A stretch of 28,607 bases of DNA from Myxococcota bacterium (GTDB lineage: Bacteria > Myxococcota_A > UBA796 > GCA-2862545), in the NCBI GenBank assembly GCA_039208735.1, contig JBCCQY010000116.1, positions 1 through 28,607 of the forward strand, read 5' to 3'. A program made the position numbers and the translations under genes. Under the pieces are notes generated by a model. The model did not search any database, had not been told where the DNA came from, and saw only the letters and a program-made list of their open reading frames with translations. Below, piece after piece: positions 4,355-28,501 of the stretch (position 1 is its first letter; every line of letters starts with the position of its first letter).

Positions 4355-5215
4355 ATGAACGTCTCCCTCCGCGACCTGTTGCAGGCCGGCGTGCACTTTG
4401 GTCACCAGACGCGGCGTTGGTCGCCCAAGATGCGACCCTACATCTACGGCGCGAAGAACGGCATTCACATCATCGACCTGCAGCAGACGGCCAAGGGCCT
4501 GATCGGCGCAAGTCGATTCCTGACCCAGACGGTGGGCCACGGGGGTTCGGTGCTGTTCGTGGGCACCAAGCGTGCGGCTCGCGAGATTGTGGCCGAAGAA
4601 GCCCAGCGGGCCCAGATGTTCTGGGTCAACAACCGTTGGCTCGGTGGCACGCTCACGAACTGGCAGACGGTGAAGAAGTCGATCGAACGTCTGGTTCAGC
4701 TCGAACGGGCGCGTGACGAAGGTCGGTTCGATGTACTGACCAAGAAGGAAGCGCTCGGCGCGAACCGCGACATCGAGAAGATGAACAAGAACTTGGGCGG
4801 CATCAAGGGCATGAAGGGCCTGCCGTCGGTGCTCTTCATCATCGACCCGAAAAAGGAACACATCGCGGTCAAGGAAGCCACCACCCTGGGCATTCCGGTG
4901 GTCGCCCTCTGCGATACGAACTGCGATCCCACGGGCATTCAGTACGTCATTCCGGGCAACGACGACGCGATCAAGTCGATTCGCCTCTTCGCTGCATCGG
5001 CGGCCGATGCCGTGATCGAAGGGCGTGCGGTGTCAACGGGTCGTGGCGGCCAGGCCTTTGTCGATGAAGCGGCGGCACAGAGCGACGTCGAGGTTGTGCG
5101 TCGGTCGGCCACGCCTGCGGACGGGGCCGGAGTGGCGCCCGACGGGGCGGCTGCTCCGCCGGCTGAGCCTGCTCCTCCCGCAGCCGAGCCGGCTCCCGAG
5201 ATCCCCGCCGACTGA
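4355..5215 (+). CDS. rpsB: 30S ribosomal protein S2 with Pro/Ala-rich C-terminal tail
   Basis: [35 protein letters not shown]. Confidence 0.98.
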
Positions 5216-5225
5216 CGGTTCCTTG

Positions 5226-5244
5226 TCCCGGGTGCACCCCGGGA
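5226..5244 (+). other. 7-bp GC hairpin between rpsB and tsf (possible attenuator or stabiliser)
   Basis: TCCCGGG-TGCAC-CCCGGGA, with no strong U-tract. Confidence 0.35.
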
Positions 5245-5277
5245 ACCCTTCACCTCAATTCATGTTTGGAGTCCGAA

Positions 5278-5922
5278 ATGGGCGCCGCCGAAATCAAAGA
5301 GCTCCGGGAGCGTACCGGCGCGGGAATGTTGGATTGCAAGAAGGCCCTCGACGAAGCCGAAGGCGACATCGAGAAGGCGGTGGACTGGCTGCGTAGCAAA
5401 GGCATCGCCAAGGCTGCCAAGAAGGCGGGCCGCGCGGCGACCGAAGGCCTCGTCACGAGCTACATCCACGCCGGCGGCAAGATCGGCGTGCTGCTTGAGG
5501 TCAACTGCGAGACCGACTTTGTGGCCATGACGGATCAGTTCCAGGAGCTGTGCAAGGACATCGCGATGCACATCGCAGCGGCCGCTCCGGAATATACGTC
5601 GCGAGACGAAGTGCCTCCGGACGCCATTGACCGTGAGCGCGAAATCCAAAAGCAGCGTGTCCTCGAAGAAGGCAAGCCCGAAAAGGTCGCAGACAAGATC
5701 GTCGAAGGCCGGATGGGTAAGTTCTACGAAGAGAACGTCCTGCTCGAGCAGAAGTTCGTCAAGGATGACAGCAAGACCATCCAAGATGTGGTGACCGAGG
5801 CCGTGGCAACGATCGGCGAGAACATCCAGGTCCGTCGCTTTGCGCGATTCGTGCTGGGTGAAGGCCTCGAAAAGAAGGAAACGGATCTGGCCGCCGAGGT
5901 GGCCGCGACCCTGGGGCAGTGA
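5278..5922 (+). CDS. tsf: Elongation factor Ts, short form (214 aa)
   Basis: IKELRERTGAGMLDCKKAL, EVNCETDFVA. ATG 5278 after GGAG. Confidence 0.97.
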   Translation: MGAAEIKELRERTGAGMLDCKKALDEAEGDIEKAVDWLRSKGIAKAAKKAGRAATEGLVTSYIHAGGKIGVLLEVNCETDFVAMTDQFQELCKDIAMHIAAAAPEYTSRDEVPPDAIDREREIQKQRVLEEGKPEKVADKIVEGRMGKFYEENVLLEQKFVKDDSKTIQDVVTEAVATIGENIQVRRFARFVLGEGLEKKETDLAAEVAATLGQ

Positions 5923-6488
5923 TCGAGATGGACGAGTACCTCGAGTCGATGAACGAAGACATGACGAGCGCGCTGGAGGCACTGGGACGTGCACTAGCGA
6001 AGATTCGCACCGGCCGTGCAACCCCGAAACTTATCGAGGGTGTGCAGGTACTCGTCCAGTCCTACGGCACATCCATGCCGATCACCCAGCTAGCCACCAT
6101 CCAGGCCCCCGACGCCCGGCTCCTCACGGTTCAACCCTGGGACAAGACCACCATCCCGGACATCGAGAAGTCGATCGTTCAGGCGGGTTTGGGGCTGAAT
6201 CCCTCCAATGATGGCCAGCTCATCCGCATTCCGGTTCCTGCCCTGACGGCCGACCGTCGGCAGGACCTCGTCAAGCTTGCCAAGAAGGCTGGCGAGGAGT
6301 CGAAAGTACGCCTGCGGCAGGTACGCAAGGAGTACAACGACATCATCAAGGGAGCCGAGAAGGACGGAGACGTCAGCGAAGACGAATCCCGTCGGCTCCA
6401 AGCACAGATTCAGGAAGGCACTGACAAATTCGTGTCCGATGTGGACCGGATCGTGGCCGAGAAGGAGGCCGAGGTCCTCGAAGTGTGA
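5919..6488 (+). CDS. frr: Ribosome recycling factor
   Basis: KIRTGRATP, QPWDK, GLNPSNDGQLIRIPVPALT. GTGA overlap with tsf, alternative ATG at 5928. Confidence 0.96.
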   Translation: MIEMDEYLESMNEDMTSALEALGRALAKIRTGRATPKLIEGVQVLVQSYGTSMPITQLATIQAPDARLLTVQPWDKTTIPDIEKSIVQAGLGLNPSNDGQLIRIPVPALTADRRQDLVKLAKKAGEESKVRLRQVRKEYNDIIKGAEKDGDVSEDESRRLQAQIQEGTDKFVSDVDRIVAEKEAEVLEV

Positions 6489-7225
6489 CCGCACCGACTG
6501 CCAGCACGAAGGGTTTGCCCCGCCATATTGCTGTCATCATGGATGGCAATGGGCGGTGGGCCACGGAGCGTGGATGGCCACGGGTGCGAGGTCACGAGGC
6601 GGGTGCCGATAGCGTTCGAGAAATCGTCCGCGCTTGCGGCGAGATGGGCATCGATGCGCTCACCCTCTACAGCTTCTCGACCGAGAACTGGGCTCGGCCC
6701 GATGATGAAGTCCAAGCCCTGATGACACTGCTCGCGTCGTACCTCGAGAACGAGCAATCCGACCTGATGGAGAATCGGGTTCAGCTGCGGGGGATCGGTG
6801 AGATCGATCGGCTACCTGCACACGTCCACGTGTTGCTTCGGCAAGCCGAAAAGCTGACCGAGCACAATGACGGGCTCAAGCTCACCTTGGCGTTGTCCTA
6901 CGGTTCTCGTCGCGAGATCGTGGACGCCGTGCGTCGGATTGCCGATGAGGTGCAGCATGGAACGCTCGACCCCTCCGACATCGACGAGACCGCAGTGACC
7001 GAGCGGTTGTACACCGCCGGCATTCCCGATCCCGACCTGCTCGTACGCACGAGCGGCGAGATGCGGTTGTCGAACTTCATGTTGTGGCAGCTCGCCTACA
7101 CTGAACTGTACGTGACCGACGTGTACTGGCCCGATTTCCGACGCCCACATTTGGAGCAGGCTCTAGCTGCGTATGCCAAGCGTCGTCGTCGGTTTGGCCA
7201 AACCGATGCGCAGGTGGCCTCATGA
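6485..7225 (+). CDS. uppS: Undecaprenyl diphosphate synthase (isoprenyl transferase)
   Basis: HIAVIMDGNGRWA, FSTENWAR, RTSGEMRLSNFMLWQ. Confidence 0.97.
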   Translation: MTAPTASTKGLPRHIAVIMDGNGRWATERGWPRVRGHEAGADSVREIVRACGEMGIDALTLYSFSTENWARPDDEVQALMTLLASYLENEQSDLMENRVQLRGIGEIDRLPAHVHVLLRQAEKLTEHNDGLKLTLALSYGSRREIVDAVRRIADEVQHGTLDPSDIDETAVTERLYTAGIPDPDLLVRTSGEMRLSNFMLWQLAYTELYVTDVYWPDFRRPHLEQALAAYAKRRRRFGQTDAQVAS

Positions 7226-8016
7226 TGACGCGCCTGTTGGCCGCGGTCATCGGTCTCGCCATCCTGCTGCCGGCCATCATCCTAGGCGGGGTCGTGGCGG
7301 TCGAGATCGCCGTCGCCATCGCAGGTCTCATCATGACCGTCGAGTACGCCTACATGGCGTTTCCTGACGACCAGCCCGTGATGAGCATCGTTCAGGCGGC
7401 CGCCGTCGTGCTGACGTCTGGCAGCATCCTGTACTGGCCTGAGTATGGCGGACTTGCGCTCGGTGGGCTGGTTTCTGGCGTCTTCATGCTGCAGACGTTG
7501 CGTCCGGGAGCCGATCTGGATCGGACCGCCGATCTCGCAGGTCGGATCTTGCTGGGGGCGGGCTTCATCAGCCTGCTGAGCGCCATGGTGCTCCTGCGAC
7601 GTCTTGATCATGGCCTTGCCTGGGTATTTCTCGTGCTTGAGCTCGCGTGGCTTGGCGATACTGGTGCCTACTTTGCGGGCCGCTTCTTTGGCCGAACGCC
7701 GCTCTATGAGCGGATCAGTCCCAAGAAGACCTGGGAAGGTGTGGCCGGCGGCATCGTACTGGCGACGGCAGGCATGTTTGTCATCCGAGAACTCGGAGAC
7801 TTGCCGCTTTCGATTGTCGAGTGTCTCGTGATTGGTCCGATACTGACGCTGATCGGGGTACTCGGAGACCTTTGTGAATCCATGCTGAAGCGGTCGTTTT
7901 CCGTCAAAGACAGCGGGTGGATCATGCCAGGGCACGGCGGACTACTTGACCGGGTCGATAGTGTTCTGTTCGTGGCCCCCTGGCTTTATGCCTGGGTCCG
8001 GATCATGGAGGGCTGA
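7222..8016 (+). CDS. cdsA: Phosphatidate cytidylyltransferase
   Basis: ISPKKTWEG, GDLCESMLKR, KDSGWIMPGHGGLLDRVDS, multiple TM segments. Confidence 0.96.
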   Translation: MMTRLLAAVIGLAILLPAIILGGVVAVEIAVAIAGLIMTVEYAYMAFPDDQPVMSIVQAAAVVLTSGSILYWPEYGGLALGGLVSGVFMLQTLRPGADLDRTADLAGRILLGAGFISLLSAMVLLRRLDHGLAWVFLVLELAWLGDTGAYFAGRFFGRTPLYERISPKKTWEGVAGGIVLATAGMFVIRELGDLPLSIVECLVIGPILTLIGVLGDLCESMLKRSFSVKDSGWIMPGHGGLLDRVDSVLFVAPWLYAWVRIMEG

Positions 8017-8019
8017 CGA

Positions 8020-9753
8020 ATGGCCGATCTGTTGTTTTGGCTCGCGGCGGGCGGCGTCATGGTTGGCGTTCTCGTCGTCGTGCATGAGGCCGGGCACTGG
8101 ATCGTGGCGAAGCTGTTCGGCGTGGGAACTCCGGTTTTCTCGATCGGATTTGGCCCGCGAATCTTCGGCTTTCGACTTTGGGAAACCGATTTCCGAATCT
8201 CGGTGCTTCCGGTTGGCGGCTACGTGCGAATGGCGGGAGCAGACCCCTTCGGCGAAGAGTTCGCCGAGGATGAGGTCGTCAATCCCGAAGAAGACTTCAT
8301 GACGAAGCCGGTCTGGCAGCGCTTCCTCATCATGCTGGCGGGACCGGCGGCCAACCTTATTCTCCCCTTCGTGCTGTTTTCGGGCGTGCTGATGCTGGGA
8401 GAGCCCCAGCCTGATGCGGTGATCGGAGACGTGCGGCCAGGTTCGATGGCGGCAGAGCTGGGGTTGGAACCCGGTGATGAGATCACACAGATCAACGACA
8501 CGCCGATCGACAACTGGCGGGAGCTTGGGCTGGCCATCTCGTCGGTTGAAGGCCCCTTCCGCCTTTCGGTGAAACGAGATGAACAGCCCATCACGGTGCA
8601 GTTCCCCGAGTGGACAAGCGATCGACTGGGACGTCGTCTGGAAGGGGTGGGCCTATCCCACAGCAGCCCCTCGGCGACGATCGGGGTGACCGACGCGACC
8701 TCTCCGGCGTGGCAGTCCGGACTCCGGCCCGGCGACCGCATCGTGAAGGTCGACGAGTCCGAGATCGTGACCTACACCGAGTTGATCGATGCACTGACCC
8801 CAGGTCAGGCGCACACGATCGATGTGGAACGTCGGATTCCGGAAAAGGAGCCGCATCGCGTCGCAGGACTCGATGACCTGCCGAAAAAACGGACGTTGAC
8901 CCTCACCCCCGACCCGACGTGGTCTCCAAGTGCCACCGAAGCCCATCGCAACGCCTGGGGCCTTGTGCCCATCAACGTTTTTGTGGGCAGGGTGCAGCCC
9001 GAATCGGCGGCGGACAAGGCGGGGGTTCGACGTGGTGACCGCCTCATGGCGATCGACGGTGCCCAAGTGCAAACCTGGGAAGATGTGCTCGAGTACGTGG
9101 GACGCACCGTTGAAGGCATGAACGTCGAAGCGGATCCTCCTCGCGGGGGCTGCGTGAGCGCCGAAAAGAAGGTATTCGGCAACCCGCTCGAGTTGTCCCT
9201 CGTCCGTGACGGCAAGCCGGTCACCCTGACGTTTGCGCCGACGGTCGAACAGGAAACGCGCTTGGATGGCACGATCGCGTTCCGTCCCATCATGGGCGTG
9301 TCGCAGTTCAGAGGAAGCTACGCCGCAGGCGGCGAGATGGTCAAGTACTACGGCGCCTTGCAGGCCGTGTCGCGGGCCGGCGAAGAGGGGAGGCTCGTGC
9401 TCGAGACCACCATGAACTCGCTTGGCAACCTGCTCACGGGCCGCGCGAAGTTTGAAGACTCGGTCGGGGGGCCCGTCGAGATCATTCGTTCGGCCGGCTA
9501 CGCCGCCAAGCAGGGCATGTTCAAGTTCGCTCGATTGATGGGCATCATCAGCTTCAGCCTCGGCATTGTGAACCTGCTCCCCATTCCTGTGCTCGATGGC
9601 GGACAGATCTTGTTCTACGCCATCGAGGGGATTCGAGGACGCCCGCTTCCCCTCGTGCTGAGGGAGCGCATTCAGATGGTCGGCGTGCTGTTTTTGGCCT
9701 CGTTGATGGTCGTCGTGCTGGTCCTCGACATCGGGCGTTGGATCCAGGGTTGA
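8020..9753 (+). CDS. rseP: RIP metalloprotease RseP with three PDZ-like domains
   Basis: HEAGH, AGPAAN, NLLPIPVLDGG. Three A..AGL/V.PGD.I-type PDZ segments. Confidence 0.95.
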   Translation: MADLLFWLAAGGVMVGVLVVVHEAGHWIVAKLFGVGTPVFSIGFGPRIFGFRLWETDFRISVLPVGGYVRMAGADPFGEEFAEDEVVNPEEDFMTKPVWQRFLIMLAGPAANLILPFVLFSGVLMLGEPQPDAVIGDVRPGSMAAELGLEPGDEITQINDTPIDNWRELGLAISSVEGPFRLSVKRDEQPITVQFPEWTSDRLGRRLEGVGLSHSSPSATIGVTDATSPAWQSGLRPGDRIVKVDESEIVTYTELIDALTPGQAHTIDVERRIPEKEPHRVAGLDDLPKKRTLTLTPDPTWSPSATEAHRNAWGLVPINVFVGRVQPESAADKAGVRRGDRLMAIDGAQVQTWEDVLEYVGRTVEGMNVEADPPRGGCVSAEKKVFGNPLELSLVRDGKPVTLTFAPTVEQETRLDGTIAFRPIMGVSQFRGSYAAGGEMVKYYGALQAVSRAGEEGRLVLETTMNSLGNLLTGRAKFEDSVGGPVEIIRSAGYAAKQGMFKFARLMGIISFSLGIVNLLPIPVLDGGQILFYAIEGIRGRPLPLVLRERIQMVGVLFLASLMVVVLVLDIGRWIQG

Positions 9754-10418: not shown

Positions 10419-11429
10419 ATGAGCACACGGGTTGGGGTTGCCGGGGCGACAGGTGCCCTGGGACAAGAGATCATTTCGGTTTTGGATCGGGTCCAATGGC
10501 GACCGGAGACATTGCTGGCTTATGCACGTGCGAGCACGTCAATCACCCACGTCGACTATGGCGATGAACGCGTTCCCGTCGACGTGACGAGCGAGATCGA
10601 TCCCGAAGGGGACGAACTGGATTTGCTGTTCACGGCGTTGCCTTCGGAGCCCGCGCGACTTGCGATCGACCGCGCTGAACAGGCTGGGGCCTTCGTCGTC
10701 GATCTGTCAGGAGCTCGGGCGGCAGATGCACCATTGATCGTGCCTTGGATCAACCCCGAACGACTTGCCGATGATGCTTTGGTCTGGCAGATCCCCCAGG
10801 CGTCGGCGACCCTTGTGGCGTCGCTCCTTGGACCTCTGGCTCGGGCGGGCATTCGGGGGCCTGCCACCATTCAGTTGCTTGTCCCGGCCTCCGTGTCAGG
10901 TCGAGCTGCGATCGAGGAGCTTTCCCAGCAGGTGTTGGCGCTGTTCAATTCAGCACCACCGCCACGCAAGGTGTTCCCCACCGGCCTGGCCTTCGATCTG
11001 ATTCCCGCCTGGGGAAACCCCACTGAAGAGGGACCGACCGTCCACGAACAGCGCACCGTCGAGCAAGTTGGGCTGCTCTTGGGAGCGCTTGAGATGGGCC
11101 CGATCGAGGTCATGGCGGTCCAGGTGCCCATCTTTTCTGGCTTGTCGGCGTCGGTCACCCTTCATCCCACCACGCGCGTTCCTGCTGAATTGGCAAGTCG
11201 CATTCTGTCCGATGGCGGCGTGGTGGTGTCGGAGTCGGCGGCGGCTGCACAGTGGCCGCGACCCCGGAAGGTCGAGGGGGCTCCCTTCGCTCATGTCGCC
11301 CGGATCCGGACCACGGACAACGGAGCCCTGCAGTTGTGGGCCACCATGGACAACCTCCGTACGACCGCGATGGCGGCGGCGGCGACGGCCCAGGCGTTGT
11401 TCCGACGGCGGAGTGCTTCCGACGGCTGA
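10419..11429 (+). CDS. Aspartate-semialdehyde dehydrogenase-like (Usg-like) protein, catalytic residues apparently lost
   Basis: GVAGATGALGQE Rossmann motif, VVDLS, PLIVPWIN, SVSGRAAIEEL, LAFDLIP, W...DNLR. NPNCST is replaced by IPQASA and the GHS His by GLS. Confidence 0.85.
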   Translation: MSTRVGVAGATGALGQEIISVLDRVQWRPETLLAYARASTSITHVDYGDERVPVDVTSEIDPEGDELDLLFTALPSEPARLAIDRAEQAGAFVVDLSGARAADAPLIVPWINPERLADDALVWQIPQASATLVASLLGPLARAGIRGPATIQLLVPASVSGRAAIEELSQQVLALFNSAPPPRKVFPTGLAFDLIPAWGNPTEEGPTVHEQRTVEQVGLLLGALEMGPIEVMAVQVPIFSGLSASVTLHPTTRVPAELASRILSDGGVVVSESAAAAQWPRPRKVEGAPFAHVARIRTTDNGALQLWATMDNLRTTAMAAAATAQALFRRRSASDG

Positions 11430-11492
11430 CAGGTTGTCGTTGGTCGACGGTGGACAAGATTGCAGCTGACAGCCTGTCAGTCGTGGTATATG
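11426..11492 (+). promoter_or_regulatory. Dyad operator-like site(s) next to an extended -10-like element
   Basis: Perfect dyad CTGACAG-C-CTGTCAG 11466-11480, imperfect copy CTGACAG-G-TTGTCG at 11426, and TGGTATATG at 11484-11492. Confidence 0.45.
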
Positions 11493-11605
11493 CGGGCGGC
11501 TTGCCGAGGTCCGGTAGCGCGTGTCGATCGGAGACACCTCCGGGTCCAGGATTCGGCATATGGTTTGCAGACGCCCCGGCGGCCGTCCGCCCGAAGGAGC
11601 ATGTC

Positions 11606-14176
11606 GTGATCTGGTTCTCCTCCCTCGCCCTCGCCGCCCCGCCGAACCAGCAGGCCGACCTGATCGCCATCCCCGACGGTAGTGGGGTGGTCGACAGCTT
11701 GATCGTGAGCCACCCCTACGAAGACGAACCCAGCCAGATCCTGGTGGGTGTGGATCGCGGAGTTCCCGCCGCATTTGTTCTCGATCTTGACACCTGGGCC
11801 ATCACGACCCTCGACACGCCATCCGACTGCGGCGTTACGGGCGTTACGGCATTCGACCTTGAGAATGGCACAAGCCAAATCTGGATTTCGTGCTCTTCGG
11901 GTGACGTCGAAGGTCGCGAGTACGCCTCCGATGGTTCAGTGACGACCCTTGCGGGACCGACCGAACTCGCTCCCTCACTCACGGCGGTGTTCTACGACGG
12001 CTACTCCATCTCGTCGGCGGGACGCTTCGTCTACGCACTTTCGTTGCCCGGTGGCGGACAGAACGCCCAGATTCATGTGTTCGACCCCGTGACGTTGGCC
12101 ACCGACGCGCAGCTGCTCGCGAACTACCCCATGCTGCTCACGGCAACCGGCTACGAAGAGGGCTGGGTGGTGCCTACGGCAGGGCAAGGCGCGCTGGTGG
12201 TGAGCCACGGGTCGGGCGCTATGTCCACGCTCCAGCTGGCGTTGCCCGCCGCCGTCGCCATTCCCGAACAGCCGGCGTTTCCTGTAGATTGTGACGATAT
12301 GGCGCCCTCGCCCTTTATCGGTGAGGTCTTCTGCCTTGACCAGGAGACGTTTGACGACACCAGCGTCGGTCAGGTGTTCGCCTATCGCACGCAAACAAAT
12401 CAGTTCGCGCCAATCCTCGGACTAGACGGCATCACGGGTCCGCGAGCGGTGGGCGTGAGTGACGACCTGTCGGACAACTGGATTGCGGTCACCGGTGAGC
12501 AGGTCCAAGTGTGGGAGCTTGATGAGTACGGAGTTCTTGTCAATCCGGCGAATCCTGCTTTCGAAACCGAGCCATCCAACGACAACAATCCGATTCAAGA
12601 CATCGTGGCCACCGAAAGCTACCTTTTTGGCGGCGGAACCGAGGGGCGGCTTCACATTGTCACCGACCGACCCTGGGTCGATCGCGATTCGGTCATCCTG
12701 ACGCCGGGGCGGGTGATTCCGGGGGAGCAGGTAACGCTGACCTTCTCGGTCCCTGGTGATGATGTCGATTGGGAGGTTCGAGAAGGCGGTGACCGGACCG
12801 GGGCCGGGGGCGTGCTCCTTGAAGAAAGCGATGGCCCTGTCAAGGCCGGCGAGACCATTGAGGTCACGATTCCTGTCTCGGTGGAGGCCGCCGAAGGCCC
12901 GCGCGATCTTTTTGTCTTGGTGACGGACAGTGCCGGCGAAGTGGGACACGCCTCGGCGACCTACACGGTGGACGACATTCCTACTGCGCCGAACCTCCGC
13001 CAGAGTGGGGTGGGCTTTGGGGACCGGCGCGTGACCCTTGAATTCGAAGGCATCTCGGACGAAGACCTTTCGCTTTACCGCGTCTATGTCTCCACCGAAC
13101 CCTTCACTCCAGATGATGAATGGCCGAATGAGCAATCGGGGCCTGACTACCGGGGCGACACCAACCTGGTGGCTCCGTTCGACGTCGAGGCAGAGCCCGG
13201 CGAACAGCAACAGATCGCCATCTTCCCGTTGAGGAACGGCGTGACGCATTACATCGCCGTTCGCGCGGTCGATCAGGGCGGCAAGGAGAGTGAAATGAAG
13301 CGGGTGGTCGAAGGGGTCCCCGAACGCGGGCAAACCCTCTCCGAACGCACGAACGAACCGGGTGGTGCTCCCTGCGCCACCGGCGTCAGGGCAGCCTCGG
13401 GTGGAGCGATGCTCGGACTGATTGGAGCCGGGCTGTTGTTCCGTCGTCGTCAGGGAGCGTTGCTTGCGCTCGGGCTCGCCATCGGAGGGCTTGGGTTGGC
13501 TTCACCCGCGCAGGCCCAGGATGACGATGGGTATTCGCGTCAGTCGGTCTGGCAGCGCAAGGACAGCACGCCGGTACGGGCCAACCTCGAACTTCGGTAC
13601 GGCGTCCATTCACTGGCCGATGAAGATGCAGCCGCGCTGTACGATGAGTCGGTCGTCGATTCGTTTACCATTGAGGTTGGGCCGCAGATTTTCCGTTTTG
13701 TGGAAATCGACCTTGGGGTGGGCTTGATCCGGGAGAACTCGTTTACCGTTCGTCCCGGCAGCTTGATCCAGAGCAACGACGGAATGCGACTCACCGTGTT
13801 CCCCGCGTACCTCGACATCTCGGCCCGAGCCCATGTGTTCGATGAACAGCCGGTGGTACCCTTCTTCCGATTCGGCTTCGACTACGCGTTTTGGAACGAG
13901 AGCGTCGAAACCCCGAACGGCGAACGACGCAATGCGGCCCGGGGCGCGAAGGCAGGCAGCCACTACGGCGCGGGACTCAACTTGCTCATCGACACCTTGT
14001 CCCCCAATCGAGCGAGCCTCTTGGAAGCCCAGACGGGCATCAACGACACTTGGCTAACCCTCGAATGGCGCCGCAATCGCATCGACGCGCGGAATCGGCC
14101 GTGGCAAGCCGCCGTCGACCAAGGATTCACGCTGTCGGGCGATGTCTTCAGTGTCGGGCTCAAGCTCGACTACTGA
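11606..14176 (+). CDS. 856-aa envelope protein: surface domains (propeller/Ig/FN3-like) + internal MYXO-CTERM-like anchor + second signal peptide + outer-membrane beta-barrel (MXAN_2561/MXAN_2562-like fusion)
   Basis: GTG 11606 after AAGGAG gives N-terminus MIWFSSLALA-APP. FN3-like GDRRVTLEF...YRVY...LRNGVTHYIAVRAVDQGGKES. Linker GGAPCATG..MLGLIGAGLLFRRRQ-GALLALGLAIGGLGLASPAQA-QDD. The C-terminal 219 aa have alternating amphipathic strands ending GLKLDY. Confidence 0.8.
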   Translation: MIWFSSLALAAPPNQQADLIAIPDGSGVVDSLIVSHPYEDEPSQILVGVDRGVPAAFVLDLDTWAITTLDTPSDCGVTGVTAFDLENGTSQIWISCSSGDVEGREYASDGSVTTLAGPTELAPSLTAVFYDGYSISSAGRFVYALSLPGGGQNAQIHVFDPVTLATDAQLLANYPMLLTATGYEEGWVVPTAGQGALVVSHGSGAMSTLQLALPAAVAIPEQPAFPVDCDDMAPSPFIGEVFCLDQETFDDTSVGQVFAYRTQTNQFAPILGLDGITGPRAVGVSDDLSDNWIAVTGEQVQVWELDEYGVLVNPANPAFETEPSNDNNPIQDIVATESYLFGGGTEGRLHIVTDRPWVDRDSVILTPGRVIPGEQVTLTFSVPGDDVDWEVREGGDRTGAGGVLLEESDGPVKAGETIEVTIPVSVEAAEGPRDLFVLVTDSAGEVGHASATYTVDDIPTAPNLRQSGVGFGDRRVTLEFEGISDEDLSLYRVYVSTEPFTPDDEWPNEQSGPDYRGDTNLVAPFDVEAEPGEQQQIAIFPLRNGVTHYIAVRAVDQGGKESEMKRVVEGVPERGQTLSERTNEPGGAPCATGVRAASGGAMLGLIGAGLLFRRRQGALLALGLAIGGLGLASPAQAQDDDGYSRQSVWQRKDSTPVRANLELRYGVHSLADEDAAALYDESVVDSFTIEVGPQIFRFVEIDLGVGLIRENSFTVRPGSLIQSNDGMRLTVFPAYLDISARAHVFDEQPVVPFFRFGFDYAFWNESVETPNGERRNAARGAKAGSHYGAGLNLLIDTLSPNRASLLEAQTGINDTWLTLEWRRNRIDARNRPWQAAVDQGFTLSGDVFSVGLKLDY

Positions 14177-14921
14177 GCCATCCCAGCGGTGGCGCATCGA
14201 CCTTGAGTACGATGGTCGTGACTTTGCCGGGTGGCAGCTGCAACCTGGGACTGCGACCATCCAAGGCGCGATCGAAGACGCCCTGACGCACCTGTTGGGC
14301 CAGTCCGTTCGGGTCGCGGGCGCAGGCCGTACGGATGCAGGCGTGCACGCAGCGAAGCAAGTCGCGAGCTTCGTGACGACGGTGGAACGGCCCCCCGAGC
14401 GAATGCGGGGAGGCCTCAATCGATTTCTGCCGTCGTCGATCGCATGCTTGTCCGCTCAACCCGTTCCGTTGACCTTCGATCCGCGTCGCGATCCCCACGT
14501 CAAGACCTACCGGTACACCTGGTTGGTGCGTCCTAGTCGTTCGCCGTTGCGTGAGGGGAGGGTGTGGCATGAACGCCGCCCTCTCGAAGTTTCGACCATG
14601 CATACCGCAGTGCAAGCGATCGTCGGCACCCACGACTTCACGTCCTTTCGAGCCGTGGGGTGCTCGGCCAAACACCCCATTCGCACTGTGCCGGAAGCCT
14701 GCGTCGAAGCCGTTGGGGATGAAGTGCGGCTTGAGGTTCGAGGCACGGGATTTCTTCGTCACATGGTGCGGATTCTCGCGGGCACTCTGCATGAAGTGGG
14801 CCGAGGGAAACGAACCCTCGACGAGTTTGTCGCCGTGCTCGAAGGCAAGGATCGAACCCAGGCGGGGCCCACGGCCCCGGCGTCCGGGTTGCTCCTGGCT
14901 GACATTACCTACGACGAATGA
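14142..14921 (+). CDS. truA: tRNA pseudouridine(38-40) synthase TruA
   Basis: LEYDGRDFAGWQ, AGRTDAGVHA, GTHDFTSF, FLRHMVR, TAPASGL. Start position uncertain. Confidence 0.96.
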   Translation: MSSVSGSSSTTEPSQRWRIDLEYDGRDFAGWQLQPGTATIQGAIEDALTHLLGQSVRVAGAGRTDAGVHAAKQVASFVTTVERPPERMRGGLNRFLPSSIACLSAQPVPLTFDPRRDPHVKTYRYTWLVRPSRSPLREGRVWHERRPLEVSTMHTAVQAIVGTHDFTSFRAVGCSAKHPIRTVPEACVEAVGDEVRLEVRGTGFLRHMVRILAGTLHEVGRGKRTLDEFVAVLEGKDRTQAGPTAPASGLLLADITYDE

Positions 14922-15215: not shown

Positions 15216-15392
15216 GGGTCTCCTGCGAAATCGCCGTGGATGGGGAGCTTTGGTGGGTGCCTGGTCGCAATGGATCGCCGAAGCGAAGTTGAAGCGAGCG
15301 AGCGGGCATCCACCGTTGTCGACAGTTCCCTGTAGCGACGATTGTTCGAGAAGGCTACCATCGCGAGGATGGAGTCCCGCCGGAGAGGATCG

Positions 15393-16898
15393 ATGTACCG
15401 AAGTGCTTTCTTGCTACCCCTGATTGGCGTTCTCGCCGCATGCAGTGGCACAGATACGACTGTGACTTCCTCGGATCTTCGGATTGATGAGGCGGGTAAC
15501 GACGACCCGGATAGCGAAGGCACGCAAATGTGCGTGAACTCCGAAGGTCACGTGTTCGTCATCTGGATGGACAACCGTTCCGACATCAACGGCAACAAGC
15601 GGGACATCTGGTTCAACCGCTCGCTGCGTCAGGGCGATGACGGCACCTGGTTGCCCCAGCCCAAGCGCATCAATGTGGGCGATCCCAACAAGCCGGGCGA
15701 CGGTCAGGTCTACAACCCTCGCCTGACCTGCAACGACCTTGGCGTCTACGTGGTGTGGGAAGACGATCGCGATGGCCTGCTGGCCAACCATCAGATCTAC
15801 TTCAACCGCTCGTTCGACGGTGGCGACACCTGGTTGGAAGAAGACCTGCAGATCGACTCCATGGACCCGGGGGGCGGCTCCATGTCGCTGCTGCCCGAGA
15901 TCAAGGCGGTGGGTCAGAACATCCACATTGCGTGGTACGACGGCTTCAATGGCCCGTTCGACATCTACTACGCTCTGTCCTCCGACGGCGGCACGACGTT
16001 CAACTCGCCGCAGGCCCTCGACATCACGCGGGGCTTCGCGTTCTCCTCGAACCCGCGCATCGATGCCAGCATCGACGGCCAAAACGTGTGGGTTGTGTGG
16101 GAAGAGTCGCGTGACGGCCAGTCGGACATCTACGTCAACCGTTCGCGCAACGGCGGTGTGACGTTTAGCGGGGCCCAGCGGCTCGACCGTGGCGACGACA
16201 ACGGAGCCACCAACAGCTTCGCGCCCGAAATCTGCAGCGACGGGCAGCAGTTTGTCTATGTCGTGTGGCACGACGAGCGCGACAGCACCGAAAATCGCGA
16301 CATCTACTACAACTTCTCCGCCAACGCGGGGCAGGAGTGGTTCGCGGTCGCCCGTCGCCTCGACGACGGCGATGCCAATGGCTTCTCGAACAGCCTCTTC
16401 CCCACCTGTGTCAGTGAAGGCGCGATCGCCCACGTGGTTTGGCAGGACTTCCGGACGCTCAACGCGTTCGACATCTGGTACCGCGAAATCACCAACGGCA
16501 ACCCAGCTCCCGAAGAAGAGCGGGTCGACCTTGGCATTCCCAACTTCGCCGAAATCGAAGGGTTCGCAAACTCGGTAGATGCCCAAGTGGCCATTGCCGA
16601 TGGTCGCGTCGGAGTGGCGTGGGTCGACTTCCGCGAAGAAGCGGCTACGGGTGCGGATCGTGGTTTTGGTGACCTGCACTACAACTACAAGGAAGCGGGC
16701 GAGAGCTTCCAGGCCAACGACTTCCGTGTCGACAGCTGGGATGCCGGCGGTAGCTTCAAGACCGACGTGAACTTCCAGATGCTCGGTGGTCAGCTCTACG
16801 CAGCCTGGACCGATGGCCGTTCGGGCACGTTCGACATCTACTTCACCCGCCTGACGATCGGTGAAGAGGGTGAGCCGCCCGTTCGCTCCGAGAACTGA
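15393..16898 (+). CDS. Lipoprotein with about 8 Asp-box/BNR-like repeats (sialidase-fold beta-propeller)
   Basis: ATG 15393 after GGAGAGG, lipobox LAA-C. Repeated V(V/A)WxDxR...DI(Y/W)xxxSxDGGxT(W/F). Confidence 0.85.
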   Translation: MYRSAFLLPLIGVLAACSGTDTTVTSSDLRIDEAGNDDPDSEGTQMCVNSEGHVFVIWMDNRSDINGNKRDIWFNRSLRQGDDGTWLPQPKRINVGDPNKPGDGQVYNPRLTCNDLGVYVVWEDDRDGLLANHQIYFNRSFDGGDTWLEEDLQIDSMDPGGGSMSLLPEIKAVGQNIHIAWYDGFNGPFDIYYALSSDGGTTFNSPQALDITRGFAFSSNPRIDASIDGQNVWVVWEESRDGQSDIYVNRSRNGGVTFSGAQRLDRGDDNGATNSFAPEICSDGQQFVYVVWHDERDSTENRDIYYNFSANAGQEWFAVARRLDDGDANGFSNSLFPTCVSEGAIAHVVWQDFRTLNAFDIWYREITNGNPAPEEERVDLGIPNFAEIEGFANSVDAQVAIADGRVGVAWVDFREEAATGADRGFGDLHYNYKEAGESFQANDFRVDSWDAGGSFKTDVNFQMLGGQLYAAWTDGRSGTFDIYFTRLTIGEEGEPPVRSEN

Positions 16899-26086: not shown

Positions 26087-27166
26087 CTACCGCCTTCGGT
26101 CGCCCCGAGCCGGGGCGGCCGGGGGCAGCCGCTCGGCGAGGCGACGGAGCCCGTCGAGCGATCGCACCCCATCCGGCAAGTCTGGCAAGAACCACGCGGG
26201 CGCACCCTGGGACTTGGCAATGAGCCGGTCGATGCGGGCGTCCTGGTCCTGAGCTCGCGCGACGGCCTCCTCGGGCAGCCGCGCGAGTCGTGGCACGGTT
26301 TCGGCCCATCCCTCGGGGGCATCGGAGAGCTTCTCCAGCTCCTCGCGAGTCGGGAACGGCCCAAGCGGTGCGGCGGCGACCCGATTGACCAAAAACCCCG
26401 CAAACCGCATCTCGCGTTCCTGCAGCTCTCCCAAGAAGCCCAGCAGGTCATTGCGTTCGGGCGCCTCCGCGTTGGCGACGAGCCAGTATCGGGTGCGATT
26501 CGAACGCAAGAGTTCGGCGACGGCGGCGGACCGCTCTCGGAACGTCTGAGAAATCTCAGAAAACAGCTCGAAGAACGTCCGGATGTCGCGCATGACGCCC
26601 TGACCCGCAAGGCGTTCGATGACGCTGAACGCGGCGCGGGTTGCGGGTCCGACGAACCGATTGGGGTCGAAGAGGCCTGCCAACAGCGAACGATCGAGGA
26701 TGGACCGTACCCGCTCGGGCGCTTGGAAGAAGTCCACCACGTGTTGGGTGGGGGGCGTGTCGACCACCACAACGTCATAGTCGCCGTCGTGCACGAGGTC
26801 GTACAACCGCTCCACCGCCATGTACTCATGCGAGCCTGACAGCCGCGTCGACACGGCCTGGTAGTAGGGGTTGGCCAGCAGTCGTTCGGCCGTCTCGGGA
26901 GAGGCCCGGTCTCGGACAATGGCGTCCCAGGTGCCCTTGCGGTCCAACATGAGGGCGGCGAGCGTTCCGGTTGCGTCCGGAAGGTCGATCGCACGAGGCT
27001 CGTTGTCGAGTGCACCAATGCCCAACGCATCCGCGAGGCGTCGCGCAGGATCGATGGTGATCACGGCTACCCGACGGCCGGCGTGGGCCTGGGCTACCGC
27101 AAAGGCAGCGGAGGTGGTGGTCTTTCCCGTTCCGCCAACCCCGCAGCAGACGTGTACCTCGGTCAC
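26087..27166 (-). CDS. ArsA/Get3-family ATPase, second of pair (Rv3680-like)
   Basis: CCGVGGTGKTT, ITIDPARRLADALG, VVVDTPP. GTGA overlap with its partner. Confidence 0.9.
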   Translation of the reverse strand: MTEVHVCCGVGGTGKTTTSAAFAVAQAHAGRRVAVITIDPARRLADALGIGALDNEPRAIDLPDATGTLAALMLDRKGTWDAIVRDRASPETAERLLANPYYQAVSTRLSGSHEYMAVERLYDLVHDGDYDVVVVDTPPTQHVVDFFQAPERVRSILDRSLLAGLFDPNRFVGPATRAAFSVIERLAGQGVMRDIRTFFELFSEISQTFRERSAAVAELLRSNRTRYWLVANAEAPERNDLLGFLGELQEREMRFAGFLVNRVAAAPLGPFPTREELEKLSDAPEGWAETVPRLARLPEEAVARAQDQDARIDRLIAKSQGAPAWFLPDLPDGVRSLDGLRRLAERLPPAAPARGDRRR

Positions 27167-28086
27167 GTGTCCTCCCGGAGCTGGGCGTACAGGGCTTGGC
27201 CCATCGTCTCGACGGACCGGTTCGCCACGTAGGGAACCACCCGCGGCGGTCTGAACCCCCGCTTCGCCACTCGGTCCTTGAGGTCGGTCAACGCGTCTAC
27301 GTGACGTTGGCGTCGCGCGGTAGCGGCTTGGACTAGCTCGCTGAGGCGCTCCCCGTGGGCCACCCTCGCCAGCGAGGCGTGCACGGCATCGAGCGACGGT
27401 GGCGGAGGAAGAGGATCGTCTTGCACGCCGTTGGCAATGATGGTGTGTGGCTGGTAGCCCTCCTCCACCAGCTGATCGGCAAGCTCGCTGGTCTCCGACA
27501 CCGGCAAGGCTTCGGGCAAGGTCACCAATACGGTTGCGGTGCGGTCGCGATCCGCAAGGAAGACCTCGATGGCCTTGGCCAGTTCGTAGAAGGGGCCTGC
27601 GCGCGTCACGTCCGTCATCGTCCGGGCCGCCTGGAGCAGCGTGAGTCCATGGCCCGTGGCCGGCGCGTCGAGGATCGTCAGATCGTAGACGGGGTCACCT
27701 CGGCGCGGATCACTGATGAGGTTCTCGATCTTGCCAAGCAGCATGAGATCGTGGAGCCCTGGTACCGCATCCACGAAGGTCGTCACGAGGCGATTGCGCA
27801 CCACACGGCGTGCGAACGGCGGTAGGCGGAGCTTGCGAGCCGCAAACTCCTCTAAGCACTCGGGAACGGTCAACGACCAAACGTCGACCCCCGGTCGTGC
27901 TGCTCGAAAGGCGAAACTTCGGCCGGTCATGCCGAACAAGGGGGGGACCGCGGCCTCTCCCAACTCGGCGATGACGACCTTTTTGCCAGCTTCAGCCGCA
28001 GCAACCGCGAGTGCGGCCGAGACGGTGCTTCGTCCGACGCCGCCCTTGCCCAGGACGACCACCAGACGGTGGTCGATCAGTCTCAC
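27163..28086 (-). CDS. ArsA/Get3-family ATPase, first of pair (Rv3679-like)
   Basis: GTG 28086 after GGAGG. GKGGVGRST, VPGL.DL..LGK, LDAPATGHG, VTLPEALPVSET. Confidence 0.9.
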   Translation of the reverse strand: MRLIDHRLVVVLGKGGVGRSTVSAALAVAAAEAGKKVVIAELGEAAVPPLFGMTGRSFAFRAARPGVDVWSLTVPECLEEFAARKLRLPPFARRVVRNRLVTTFVDAVPGLHDLMLLGKIENLISDPRRGDPVYDLTILDAPATGHGLTLLQAARTMTDVTRAGPFYELAKAIEVFLADRDRTATVLVTLPEALPVSETSELADQLVEEGYQPHTIIANGVQDDPLPPPPSLDAVHASLARVAHGERLSELVQAATARRQRHVDALTDLKDRVAKRGFRPPRVVPYVANRSVETMGQALYAQLREDT

Positions 28087-28104
28087 GATCGGGGCCTCCG
28101 GGGC

Positions 28105-28133
28105 TTGCCATCGGGTACGACCGTTCCTATATC
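28105..28133 (+). promoter_or_regulatory. Putative sigma70 promoter for the zinc ribbon-folD unit
   Basis: TTGCCA, 17 nt spacer, TATATC in the short divergent intergenic region. Confidence 0.35.
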
Positions 28134-28159
28134 GAAACGGCGTCCAGACGGAGGGGCAC

Positions 28160-28501
28160 ATGCCCATCTACGAGTACGGCTGCGAATCCTGCGGCCATCA
28201 GTTTGAAAAGCTCATGCGGATGGGAGCCGATGCGCCACCCTGCCCCGAATGCAACAGCGACCAGGTACGCAAAAAGGTCTCGCGGTCTGGCTTCGTCCTC
28301 AAAGGCGGTGGCTGGTACAAAGATCACTACGGCCTGAAAGGGGGTTCGTCGTCTTCATCGGCTTCCGATTCGAGTTCGAGCAGCTCCGATAGCGGTTCGA
28401 GCGCCGGCGAGTCTTCGTCGAGTTCCGATTCCAGTTCCTCCTCGAGCGATAGCGGTGGTTCGAGTTCCAGTTCCAAGTCTGGCGACGCGGCGGCCAAGTG
28501 A
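28160..28501 (+). CDS. FmdB-family zinc ribbon protein with Ser-rich tail
   Basis: MPIYEYGCESCGHQFE...CPEC...FVLKGGGWY.D.Y followed by poly-Ser. SD GGAGG. Confidence 0.93.
   Translation: MPIYEYGCESCGHQFEKLMRMGADAPPCPECNSDQVRKKVSRSGFVLKGGGWYKDHYGLKGGSSSSSASDSSSSSSDSGSSAGESSSSSDSSSSSSDSGGSSSSSKSGDAAAK

Follow-up and report, generated by a model that had tools for sequence, protein, structure and literature searches.

A Myxococcota gene predicted to encode an SgmI-like surface protein and an MXAN_2562-like barrel as one polyprotein

In Myxococcus xanthus the surface protein SgmI (MXAN_2561) and its neighbour MXAN_2562 are co-transcribed and show similar mutant fitness, and SgmI has been linked to pilus-dependent motility (bioRxiv 10.64898/2026.08.28.747804, in excerpt). 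In the TraA/TraB pair a MYXO-CTERM surface protein is likewise combined with an outer-membrane barrel, the two being overlapping separate ORFs (PMC11980579, in excerpt here and below). TraA is a proven myxosortase substrate. Its cleavage by MrtX depends on the Cys and can be reproduced in E. coli, and the lipid step on this Cys is itself a model (PMC11980579). One M. xanthus gene, MXAN_5598, encodes an adhesin region and an outer-membrane barrel with an internal MYXO-CTERM lying between them (Guo, Haft and Wall, mBio 2025, PMC11980579). It was proposed to be a fusion of two genes whose N-terminal part is processed and surface-anchored, and such cases were called rare. Sorting tags working away from the C-terminus are covered by references 45 and 46 of the same paper.

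The gene studied here lies on the forward strand at 11606-14176 of the window, that is, of the whole stretch of 28,607 nucleotides analysed, which belongs to a metagenome assembly (92.7% complete, 6% contamination). It is a single open frame of 856 aa with a GTG start, in agreement with the preliminary description, whose positions for GGAPC (from 13361), the internal Met (13409), RRR (13442-13450) and the end of AQA (13516) were reproduced, as was its count of 219 aa behind the second proposed cut. The codon of Cys590 is 13373-13375. A scan for consensus promoters and terminators gave nothing above chance. The following features were assigned.

10419..11429, + strand: divergent aspartate-semialdehyde dehydrogenase-like (asd-like) gene, upstream neighbour and synteny marker
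11594..11599, + strand: Shine-Dalgarno-like AAGGAG, 6 nt before the GTG start, read from the sequence
11606..11635, + strand: short N-terminal signal peptide, residues 1-10, lacking a basic n-region, with putative cleavage
11636..12670, + strand: predicted beta-propeller, about residues 11-355 (AlphaFold2 pLDDT mostly >90; Foldseek)
12671..12976, + strand: predicted Ig-like beta-sandwich, about residues 356-457, from the strand pattern in the model
12977..13330, + strand: FN3-like domain, about residues 458-575, from the model; its end matches the SgmI/MXAN_2561 model
13361..13441, + strand: internal MYXO-CTERM-like tag, GG-x-x-Cys590 and first hydrophobic helix, from conservation and spacing
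13442..13450, + strand: Arg613-615 (RRR), with a presumed dual role as basic tail of the tag and n-region of the second signal
13451..13516, + strand: internal signal peptide, h-region and AQA, with a signal peptidase I cut predicted after Ala637 from conservation and pattern
13517..14176, + strand: MXAN_2562-like outer-membrane beta-barrel with 8 predicted strands, ending in GLKLDY (NF040596, model, Foldseek)
14142..14921, + strand: truA, downstream neighbour and synteny marker (TIGR00071, above cutoff)

Like the SgmI/MXAN_2562 pair, the gene combines an FN3 domain and a MYXO-CTERM-like tag with a barrel in the same order, and the models of both families (NF045522 and NF040596) match it; it differs in being one gene instead of two, in the additional predicted beta-propeller and in scoring below both cutoffs. 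The NF045522 match covers residues 529-615 (E 8.9e-6, 25.4 bits against a cutoff of 150) and only model positions 215-304, so that neither the full length nor the 150 bits of a family member are reached. In layout the N-terminal half agrees with SgmI/MXAN_2561, having an FN3-type domain that ends in a Cys tag upstream of a barrel. The barrel half matches NF040596 with E 7.2e-20 and 71.5 bits, below the cutoff of 100 bits, and agrees with MXAN_2562 in its predicted outer-membrane barrel fold and in its place directly behind an MXAN_2561-like protein. The kinship to these two families that had been proposed therefore stands in so far as both models match, but both halves stay below cutoff. No TraA/TraB model matches the gene. 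MXAN_5598 shares with it the internal MYXO-CTERM before an outer-membrane barrel; compared by description only, it represents a different pair of genes, which resembles TraAB, includes an OmpA domain and lies beside ftsA/ftsZ (PMC11980579). The novelty of the arrangement had thus been overstated at the outset. In the excerpted description of MXAN_5598 neither a second signal peptide nor a second cut is mentioned, whereas the internal signal is conserved in the lineage studied here.

The N-terminal signal noted at first inspection was confirmed by conservation, since among 61 homologues A8 and A10 are kept in 90% or more and P13 is invariant. Foldseek placed the model of the N-terminal domain with propeller proteins, among them 1l0q and galactose oxidase. 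The region had been described as beta-rich surface domains ending in an FN3-like domain; the FN3-like end was found, and the predicted propeller making up the N-terminal 345 residues had not been named. The Ig-like region gave a weak match to Pfam A2M_BRD (E 0.021). Modelled alone, the C-terminal part folds with a pLDDT of 91.6, and Foldseek listed OmpA, NspA, OmpX and OmpW for it. The possibility that this part would not fold as a barrel, raised as an objection beforehand, was answered by an OmpA-like predicted fold.

Between the two halves lies a hinge whose elements are all conserved at an overall identity of 30-50%. G586 and C590 are invariant in 61/61 homologues, and R613-615 and A637 are conserved in at least 90% of them. 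Among 52 fused junctions the Cys is present in all, a first helix with a hydropathy of 2 or more in 49, at least three Arg/Lys in 50, a second hydrophobic stretch in 51 and an AxA motif in 50. AxA was found in 55/416 control windows from the soluble part, which are less Ala-rich, so that this contrast is overstated. The distance from Cys to Arg is 23 in the internal tag and 18-24 in 57 terminal tags of the same genome. Scoring of helices and signals relied solely on hydropathy and motifs; the internal signal passes this pattern test with a basic n-region, a hydrophobic core and A-x-A. In the AlphaFold2 model of the full chain confident domains stand on both sides of the hinge, and the pLDDT is below 50 over residues 591-637. 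The tag is not C-terminal as in ordinary MYXO-CTERM proteins, 241 residues following it, and it did not match TIGR03901 at the 20-bit cutoff; the gene was also absent from one TIGR03901 screen that gave 52 matches among 150 scored of 217 candidates. Scored against a profile that combines 42 terminal tags of its own genome, it reached 9.6 bits. Orthologous internal tags reached 24.9, 21.4 and 18.0 bits on TIGR03901, those of loci L156 and L171 being above cutoff. The MYXO-CTERM assignment accordingly holds for the Cys, the helix and the Arg cluster and for these two orthologues, but not for the model score of the gene itself. At one locus, L072, the segment from Cys to AxA lacks an Arg cluster and contains just one hydrophobic stretch, which the hairpin model does not explain.

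Relatives were compared for fused and split forms. Of 80 loci read in the same order, 71 are fused (the 52 junctions analysed in detail and 19 of 20 further loci), 7 are split and 2 could not be called, so that relatives are mostly fused and not, as had been feared, all split. Judged by sequence, the fused layout is kept across the whole order and is seen again in other lineages; fusion is thus the norm in this order and recurs elsewhere, whereas such cases were called rare in PMC11980579. In all 17 split loci gene 1 ends after the Cys-helix-Arg segment, and the barrel gene, which opens with a Met and a signal of its own, starts -7 to +33 nt from the gene 1 stop; this Met-started signal takes the position of the internal signal in 17/17. 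At least 14 changes between the fused and the split state are required on the barrel tree. The asd-like gene and truA adjoin the gene in 42/45 loci and are also neighbours of fused and split loci in other classes, including members of the families above cutoff. Some fusions of other loci carry CFI-box-CTERM in place of MYXO-CTERM; no CFI-box-CTERM was found in the genome of the window, which is 92.7% complete.

The gene encodes an SgmI-like surface protein and an MXAN_2562-like barrel in one frame, and we estimate a probability of roughly 0.8 that its product is a polyprotein that forms a hairpin through the inner membrane and is cut twice, myxosortase acting near Cys590 and signal peptidase I after Ala637. 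The N-terminal signal would direct Sec export of the propeller, Ig and FN3 domains. The first helix would then halt transfer and leave RRR in the cytoplasm, as in the MYXO-CTERM model. RRR may next serve as n-region of the second signal and restart export of the barrel, which is suggested by the split orthologues with their normal Met-started signal at that position. Signal peptidase I would free the barrel for insertion into the outer membrane. By analogy with TraA, Cys590 would be lipidated and myxosortase would cut behind it, the lipid-anchored protein reaching the surface via the type II system. The genome encodes a myxosortase (NF040914, 121 bits, cutoff 100) and three signal peptidase I genes above cutoff; the myxosortase core was above cutoff in 61/61 genomes of the order and in 0/14 controls. 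On this reading the two cuts, the lipid anchor, a 1:1 stoichiometry and binding between the halves are predicted.

We considered several other explanations for the fused frame. It is unlikely that the stop codon was simply lost and that the barrel is made mostly by initiation inside the frame, close to the Arg cluster, with the read-through product incidental. Such starts are available: an ATG, GTG or TTG lies in the first helix in 40/52 fused loci and a start codon within six codons after the Arg cluster in 20/52, the gene itself has ATG at 13409 and, four codons behind RRR, a TTG, a codon whose use is slightly raised in the junctions (0.127 vs 0.080), and native signals of the lineage can be short, uncharged and often without a basic n-region. 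However, the candidate codons scatter from -23 to +6, and from the Cys to six codons past the Arg cluster 32/52 loci have no ATG and 8/52 no ATG, GTG or TTG at all. The GTG share of Val codons is 0.448 in junctions and 0.453 in the gene body, and Met occurs in 13/57 terminal tags, where no start is needed. With no stop codon, moreover, every ribosome on the surface protein would continue into the barrel, and the precursor would need handling. A conserved internal start codon was not found among the 52 fused junctions, which speaks against initiation at Met 13409 as the source of the barrel, although the gene keeps that ATG and some additional internal initiation may occur. There is a negligible probability that the assembly is wrong here or that the stop codon was lost recently and neutrally. 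The window does come from a metagenome assembly with 6% contamination, but run X1, which may be the source sample, gave a contig covering 11921-13618 with zero differences, and a contig of run X3 from another study covers 13306-13530 with 7 substitutions and no gap, so that the stop or indel suspected near 13450 is absent from both. Furthermore, 47/49 genomes of the family match the gene, no match being interrupted by a stop, and the 71 fused loci of the order include the near-complete assemblies G024 and G009. An assembly artefact was therefore rejected.

The remaining explanations accept the fused chain and differ in its fate. Cleavage by signal peptidase I alone, with the N-terminal half staying on the inner-membrane hairpin and facing the periplasm, would agree with a tag that scores below the MYXO-CTERM model, and acceptance by myxosortase of a tag running into a second helix is a proposal made for MXAN_5598 (PMC11980579). 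We regard it as improbable: the Cys is invariant and spaced as in terminal tags, the orthologous tags of L156 and L171 exceed the TIGR03901 cutoff, and the same tag is terminal in split relatives. The single chain, in which a C-terminal barrel comes after a passenger, is also reminiscent of autotransporters; the barrel would then export and hold its own passenger. The classical (type Va) autotransporter has a 12-stranded C-terminal translocator, and hydrophobic helices flanking a basic cluster stop Sec transfer by an established membrane-topology rule. Here 8 strands are predicted for the barrel, which matches OmpA, NspA and OmpX first, while autotransporter barrels come further down the ranking with TM-scores of about 0.3; no autotransporter Pfam family matches, the two helices around RRR would stop Sec transfer, and the pair exists also as two genes. 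A chain that stays whole is thus very improbable, and a classical autotransporter was rejected on the strand number, the OmpA-like first matches, the missing Pfam match and the internal hairpin. None of the four outcomes named beforehand as contrary to the two-product polyprotein reading was obtained, and on sequence grounds that reading is supported.

Related principles are found in other proteins. In the tag profile search the NCBIfam family 'midcut-by-XrtH' matched weakly; it comprises a C-terminal-type tag processed in mid-protein. The Bradyrhizobium FbcH precursor and flavivirus-type polyproteins are single precursors split at an internal signal-like site, a stop-transfer segment being followed by a signal. 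They have no sorting tag and no lipid anchor, and their products are inner-membrane or viral; the likeness is a lead only. Non-terminal sorting tags (midcut and references 45 and 46 of PMC11980579) share the processing in mid-protein, but by sortase, archaeosortase and exosortase. Among the papers listed in literature searches, outside which most subscription papers fell, PMC11980579 alone dealt with internal MYXO-CTERM or MXAN_5598, one was relevant to MXAN_2561 and MXAN_2562, nothing relevant appeared for polyproteins with an internal signal peptide, midcut and CFI-box-CTERM did not occur, and no paper had the term fbcH. MXAN_2561, MXAN_2562, fusion and polyprotein do not occur in the Haft preprint.

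The hinge had been described for this gene alone, which proved too narrow, as it recurs with other tags and other passengers. Eight other genes of the genome have the same hinge, three of them with lipoboxes; the internal lipobox on contig C93 matches the ordinary N-terminal lipobox of a stand-alone paralogue on C5. The hinge on C105 was not found in relatives, where 2/48 other genomes matched with the upstream half only and with terminal tags. The hinge on C54 is doubtful, its upstream part being short and not protein-like, with Met codons in the first helix. Repeated fusion and fission, like the variants with a lipobox or in tandem, point to a design that can be reused. We regard it as somewhat probable that Myxococcota possess a general envelope polyprotein grammar, in which a Cys-type tag (MYXO-CTERM or CFI-box-CTERM) lends its basic tail to the signal of the next gene as n-region, neighbours fuse and split at little cost, and one hairpin yields two products with different routes (a barrel, a signal peptidase II lipoprotein or a second tagged surface protein).

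The role of the gene is likely that of the SgmI/MXAN_2562 pair, an adhesion module with the barrel holding or presenting the surface protein, and the fusion would alter only how the two proteins are made. It is uncommon for a bacterial precursor to yield two envelope proteins that follow separate routes, and in annotation pipelines these fusions appear as one hypothetical protein. As Rosetta-stone evidence, the fusion points to a joint function of SgmI and MXAN_2562, both poorly characterised, and the gene offers a direct test of the mid-protein myxosortase cutting proposed in PMC11980579. If the general grammar is true, CFI-box-CTERM would be a processed tag and barrels of the MXAN_2562 type would be dedicated partners of Cys-tagged surface proteins.

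The gene at 11606-14176 (+) consists of one uninterrupted frame of 856 residues with a GTG start and an AAGGAG sequence 6 nt upstream of it. The positions named in the preliminary description were correct: GGAPC begins at 13361, Cys590 lies at 13373-13375, the RRR cluster at 13442-13450, and the AQA motif ends at 13516 and is followed by 219 residues. Two contigs cross the junction at 13360-13520: one of sequencing run X1, possibly the source sample itself, covers 11921-13618 without any difference from the gene; the other, of run X3 in a separate study, covers 13306-13530 with seven substitutions and no gap. Neither contig shows a stop or indel across the junction. The fused frame is real and conserved. 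Very short signal peptides of 10-17 aa, in many cases with no basic n-region, stand at the N-terminus of this protein (11606-11635) and of other secreted proteins of the genome.

The two halves had been said to resemble the MXAN_2561 and MXAN_2562 families. Both NCBIfam models match, the MXAN_2562 barrel model on residues 694-856 (E 7.2e-20, 71.5 bits) and the MXAN_2561 model on residues 529-615 (E 8.9e-6, 25.4 bits), but the scores stay below the cutoffs of 100 and 150 bits, respectively. The expected match to TIGR03901, the MYXO-CTERM model, was not obtained for the query's own tag in the profile searches. With sub-cutoff scores and a tag that is not terminal, the protein is not a strict member of TIGR03901, NF045522 or NF040596; it nevertheless most likely functions like the SgmI/MXAN_2562 pair. 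The folds of both halves were predicted with AlphaFold2 from an alignment of 61 sequences (mean pLDDT of the full-length model 89.0). The model shows a beta-rich N-terminal region, matched to propeller proteins by Foldseek, followed by two beta-sandwiches and a C-terminal barrel. Two helices, 603-610 and 617-630, are predicted with low confidence (pLDDT below 50 across 591-637). Modelled by themselves, the last 219 residues form a predicted barrel of eight long strands (pLDDT 91.6) with OmpA, NspA, Ail, OprF and OmpX as closest Foldseek matches, in line with the barrel-like character attributed to this part.

The fused frame is equivalent to a pair of split genes. The split loci act as a natural control. 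In all 17 the stop codon of the first gene comes after the Cys-helix-Arg element, and the barrel gene opens between -7 and +33 nt relative to this stop codon, its Met being followed by a signal peptide. Since split barrels start in this way, the segment that follows RRR in fused loci corresponds to the barrel's signal peptide, its Met and n-region being exchanged for the tail of the tag. An asd-like gene is located upstream in 42 and truA downstream in 42 of 45 loci; the same genes also flank fused and split loci in other classes, and these common flanks support orthology.

Further features of the window
4355-9753: rpsB, tsf, frr, uppS, cdsA and rseP without pyrH and dxr, usual members of this cluster; EF-Ts is a short form (218 aa)
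10419-14921: asd-like gene and truA bracketing the fused gene, a slot which we take to be that of the pilus-related fimV in some proteobacteria
15342-16898 (+): propeller-like protein of 518 aa with BNR repeats, located between truA and rplM
26087-28167 (-): two neighbouring ArsA/Get3-fold ATPases, closest to mycobacterial BagA and BagB, below cutoff

Of 49 genomes in the family, 47 gave a match, none interrupted by a stop codon; across the class, the C-terminal 398 residues found a match in 146 of 151 genomes. Of 80 loci of the order read directly, which are not a random sample because ten were fetched for looking split, 71 were fused (52, and 19 among 20 later loci), seven split (L063-L068, L070) and two uncallable (L069, N gap; L287, cut by a contig end). 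The relatives are thus not all split, a case that had been named as speaking against the fusion. A further 45 loci (L111-L155) were all fused; many come from the same genomes and were not added to the count. Several of these records are labelled Enterobacteriaceae, Klebsiella or Alphaproteobacteria despite a Myxococcota-type locus, and the labels look unreliable. In other orders of the class all ten loci fetched were split.

C590 and G586 are invariant in 61 homologues, and R613-615 and A637 are conserved in at least 90%. The Cys is present in all of 52 fused junctions, three or more Arg/Lys in 50, the second hydrophobic stretch in 51 and AxA in 50; of 416 control windows taken from the soluble part, 55 contain AxA. 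The Cys-to-Arg spacing has a mode of 21, as in 57 terminal tags of the window's genome. One of the 71 fused loci, L072 (genome G145, 780-aa frame), does not fit the hairpin hinge: a single hydrophobic stretch runs from Cys to AEA without an Arg cluster, the cause being either a deletion made during assembly or a hinge that has genuinely collapsed. The Cys-to-Arg pattern is present in its sister L097 and in 64 further fused junctions.

We consider it probable (about 0.8) that the gene product is a polyprotein cut twice, by signal peptidase I and myxosortase. Sec would export the N-terminal part, the first helix would act as stop-transfer, leaving RRR in the cytoplasm, and the second helix would restart export; signal peptidase I would cut after Ala637 and myxosortase at Cys590. 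The surface protein would reach its destination with a lipid anchor and the barrel its own, and the two may act as an adhesion pair. In the window's genome one myxosortase core and three genes for signal peptidase I score over cutoff; a core over cutoff is likewise present in all 61 genomes tested from the order and in none of 14 controls. In M. xanthus, MrtX cleaves TraA, requires the cysteines of the tag and is active in E. coli, and lipidation and type II export are the authors' model (PMC11980579). MXAN_2561 is SgmI, which is tied to pilus-dependent motility; sgmI is co-transcribed with MXAN_2562 and shares its mutant fitness profile (bioRxiv 10.64898/2026.08.28.747804).

Alternatively, independent initiation inside the frame could account for the barrel. 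Some start codon lies within the first helix in 40 of the 52 junctions, TTG is somewhat commoner in junctions (0.127 vs 0.080), and native signals in this lineage frequently lack basic residues, all of which counts against the polyprotein. No start codon has a fixed position across the 52 junctions, which argues against this alternative; from Cys to six codons past the Arg cluster, 32 contain no ATG and eight no ATG, GTG or TTG, and the GTG share of Val codons is 0.448 in junctions vs 0.453 in the gene body. Additional internal starts may occur in fused genes, but as there is no stop codon at the hinge the full precursor of the proposed polyprotein would be produced anyway.

Of 251 genomes sampled across the phylum, 203 carry the barrel family, and five of the 30 best phylum loci are fused. 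For the window's genome the phylum search also counted a second match to NF040596. When 40 phylum loci were chosen for long open frames and called by eye, 34 were fused, two of them ambiguously (L177 and L179, Met after the Arg cluster), and six split. In eight of the 34 (L163, L169, L177, L184, L186, L189, L190, L194) CFI-box-CTERM, seven times over cutoff, replaces MYXO-CTERM ahead of helix, Arg cluster and signal; a myxosortase core was found in all five genomes with such fusions that were tested. In a quickly built barrel tree with 114 rows, 66 of them fused and 48 split (L069 omitted, family f1 thinned to 10), fused and split sisters stand together in well-supported clades and at least 14 changes of state are required; given a single gene and biased sampling, this count is only indicative and assigns no direction to the individual changes. 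On a class-level tree, with the long-branched L070 left out, holding the fused rows together was rejected (AU p 5e-5) and at least four changes are required.

The same hinge occurs with other passengers. TIGR03901 has 52 matches in the window's genome, seven with a long open tail opening in a signal-like stretch. When 15,649 frames were scanned for the motif, with reversed sequences as decoys, the yield was 50 terminal tags (decoys 2), four internal tags followed by an SPase I-like signal, including the query and the C20 gene (1), three with a lipobox (0) and six without signal (5). Both searches combined give nine hinge genes, the query among them, compared with about 66 genes that have terminal tags.

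Other hinge genes of the window's genome (G000), by contig
C125, 13111-15531 (+), L103: tandem form, thrombospondin-repeat, MtsC-like
C2, 154748-158956 (+), L104: tandem form, thrombospondin-repeat, MtsC-like
C20, 69373-72951 (-), L110: tandem form
C93, 1833-6743 (+), L106: internal tag and lipobox signal
C105, 11553-16508 (-), L105: internal tag and lipobox signal
C36, 34121-37708 (+), L109: internal tag and lipobox signal
C26, 50568-54611 (-), L107: internal tag and signal before barrel-like passenger, weak CglD match upstream
C54, 22935-25268 (-), L108: internal tag and signal before barrel-like passenger, TraB-like OmpA domain; doubtful, the upstream part being short

Each tandem gene encodes two surface proteins in succession, both preceded by a signal; the internal tag closes the first and a second, terminal tag closes the other. 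Forms similar to L103 and L104 occur in genomes G012 and G014. The lipobox passengers are predicted from their sequences to be lipoproteins cut by signal peptidase II. Genomes G014 and G028 retain the C93 hinge; the C93 passenger begins like a stand-alone lipoprotein paralogue on contig C5. Lipobox hinges were also found in G244 and G061; for the C105 hinge no fused form was found in the relatives searched. Two giant frames of genome G024 (contig C1; L221, 4649 aa, and L226, 4390 aa) have near-identical internal hinges.

In the literature searched, which covered few subscription papers, we found no published account of a fused SgmI/MXAN_2562 or of a double-use hinge. MXAN_5598 carries an internal MYXO-CTERM, with a barrel and OmpA domain behind it, and its N-terminal part was proposed to be processed; a second signal and a second cut, as proposed for the query, do not appear in the passage on this protein (PMC11980579).
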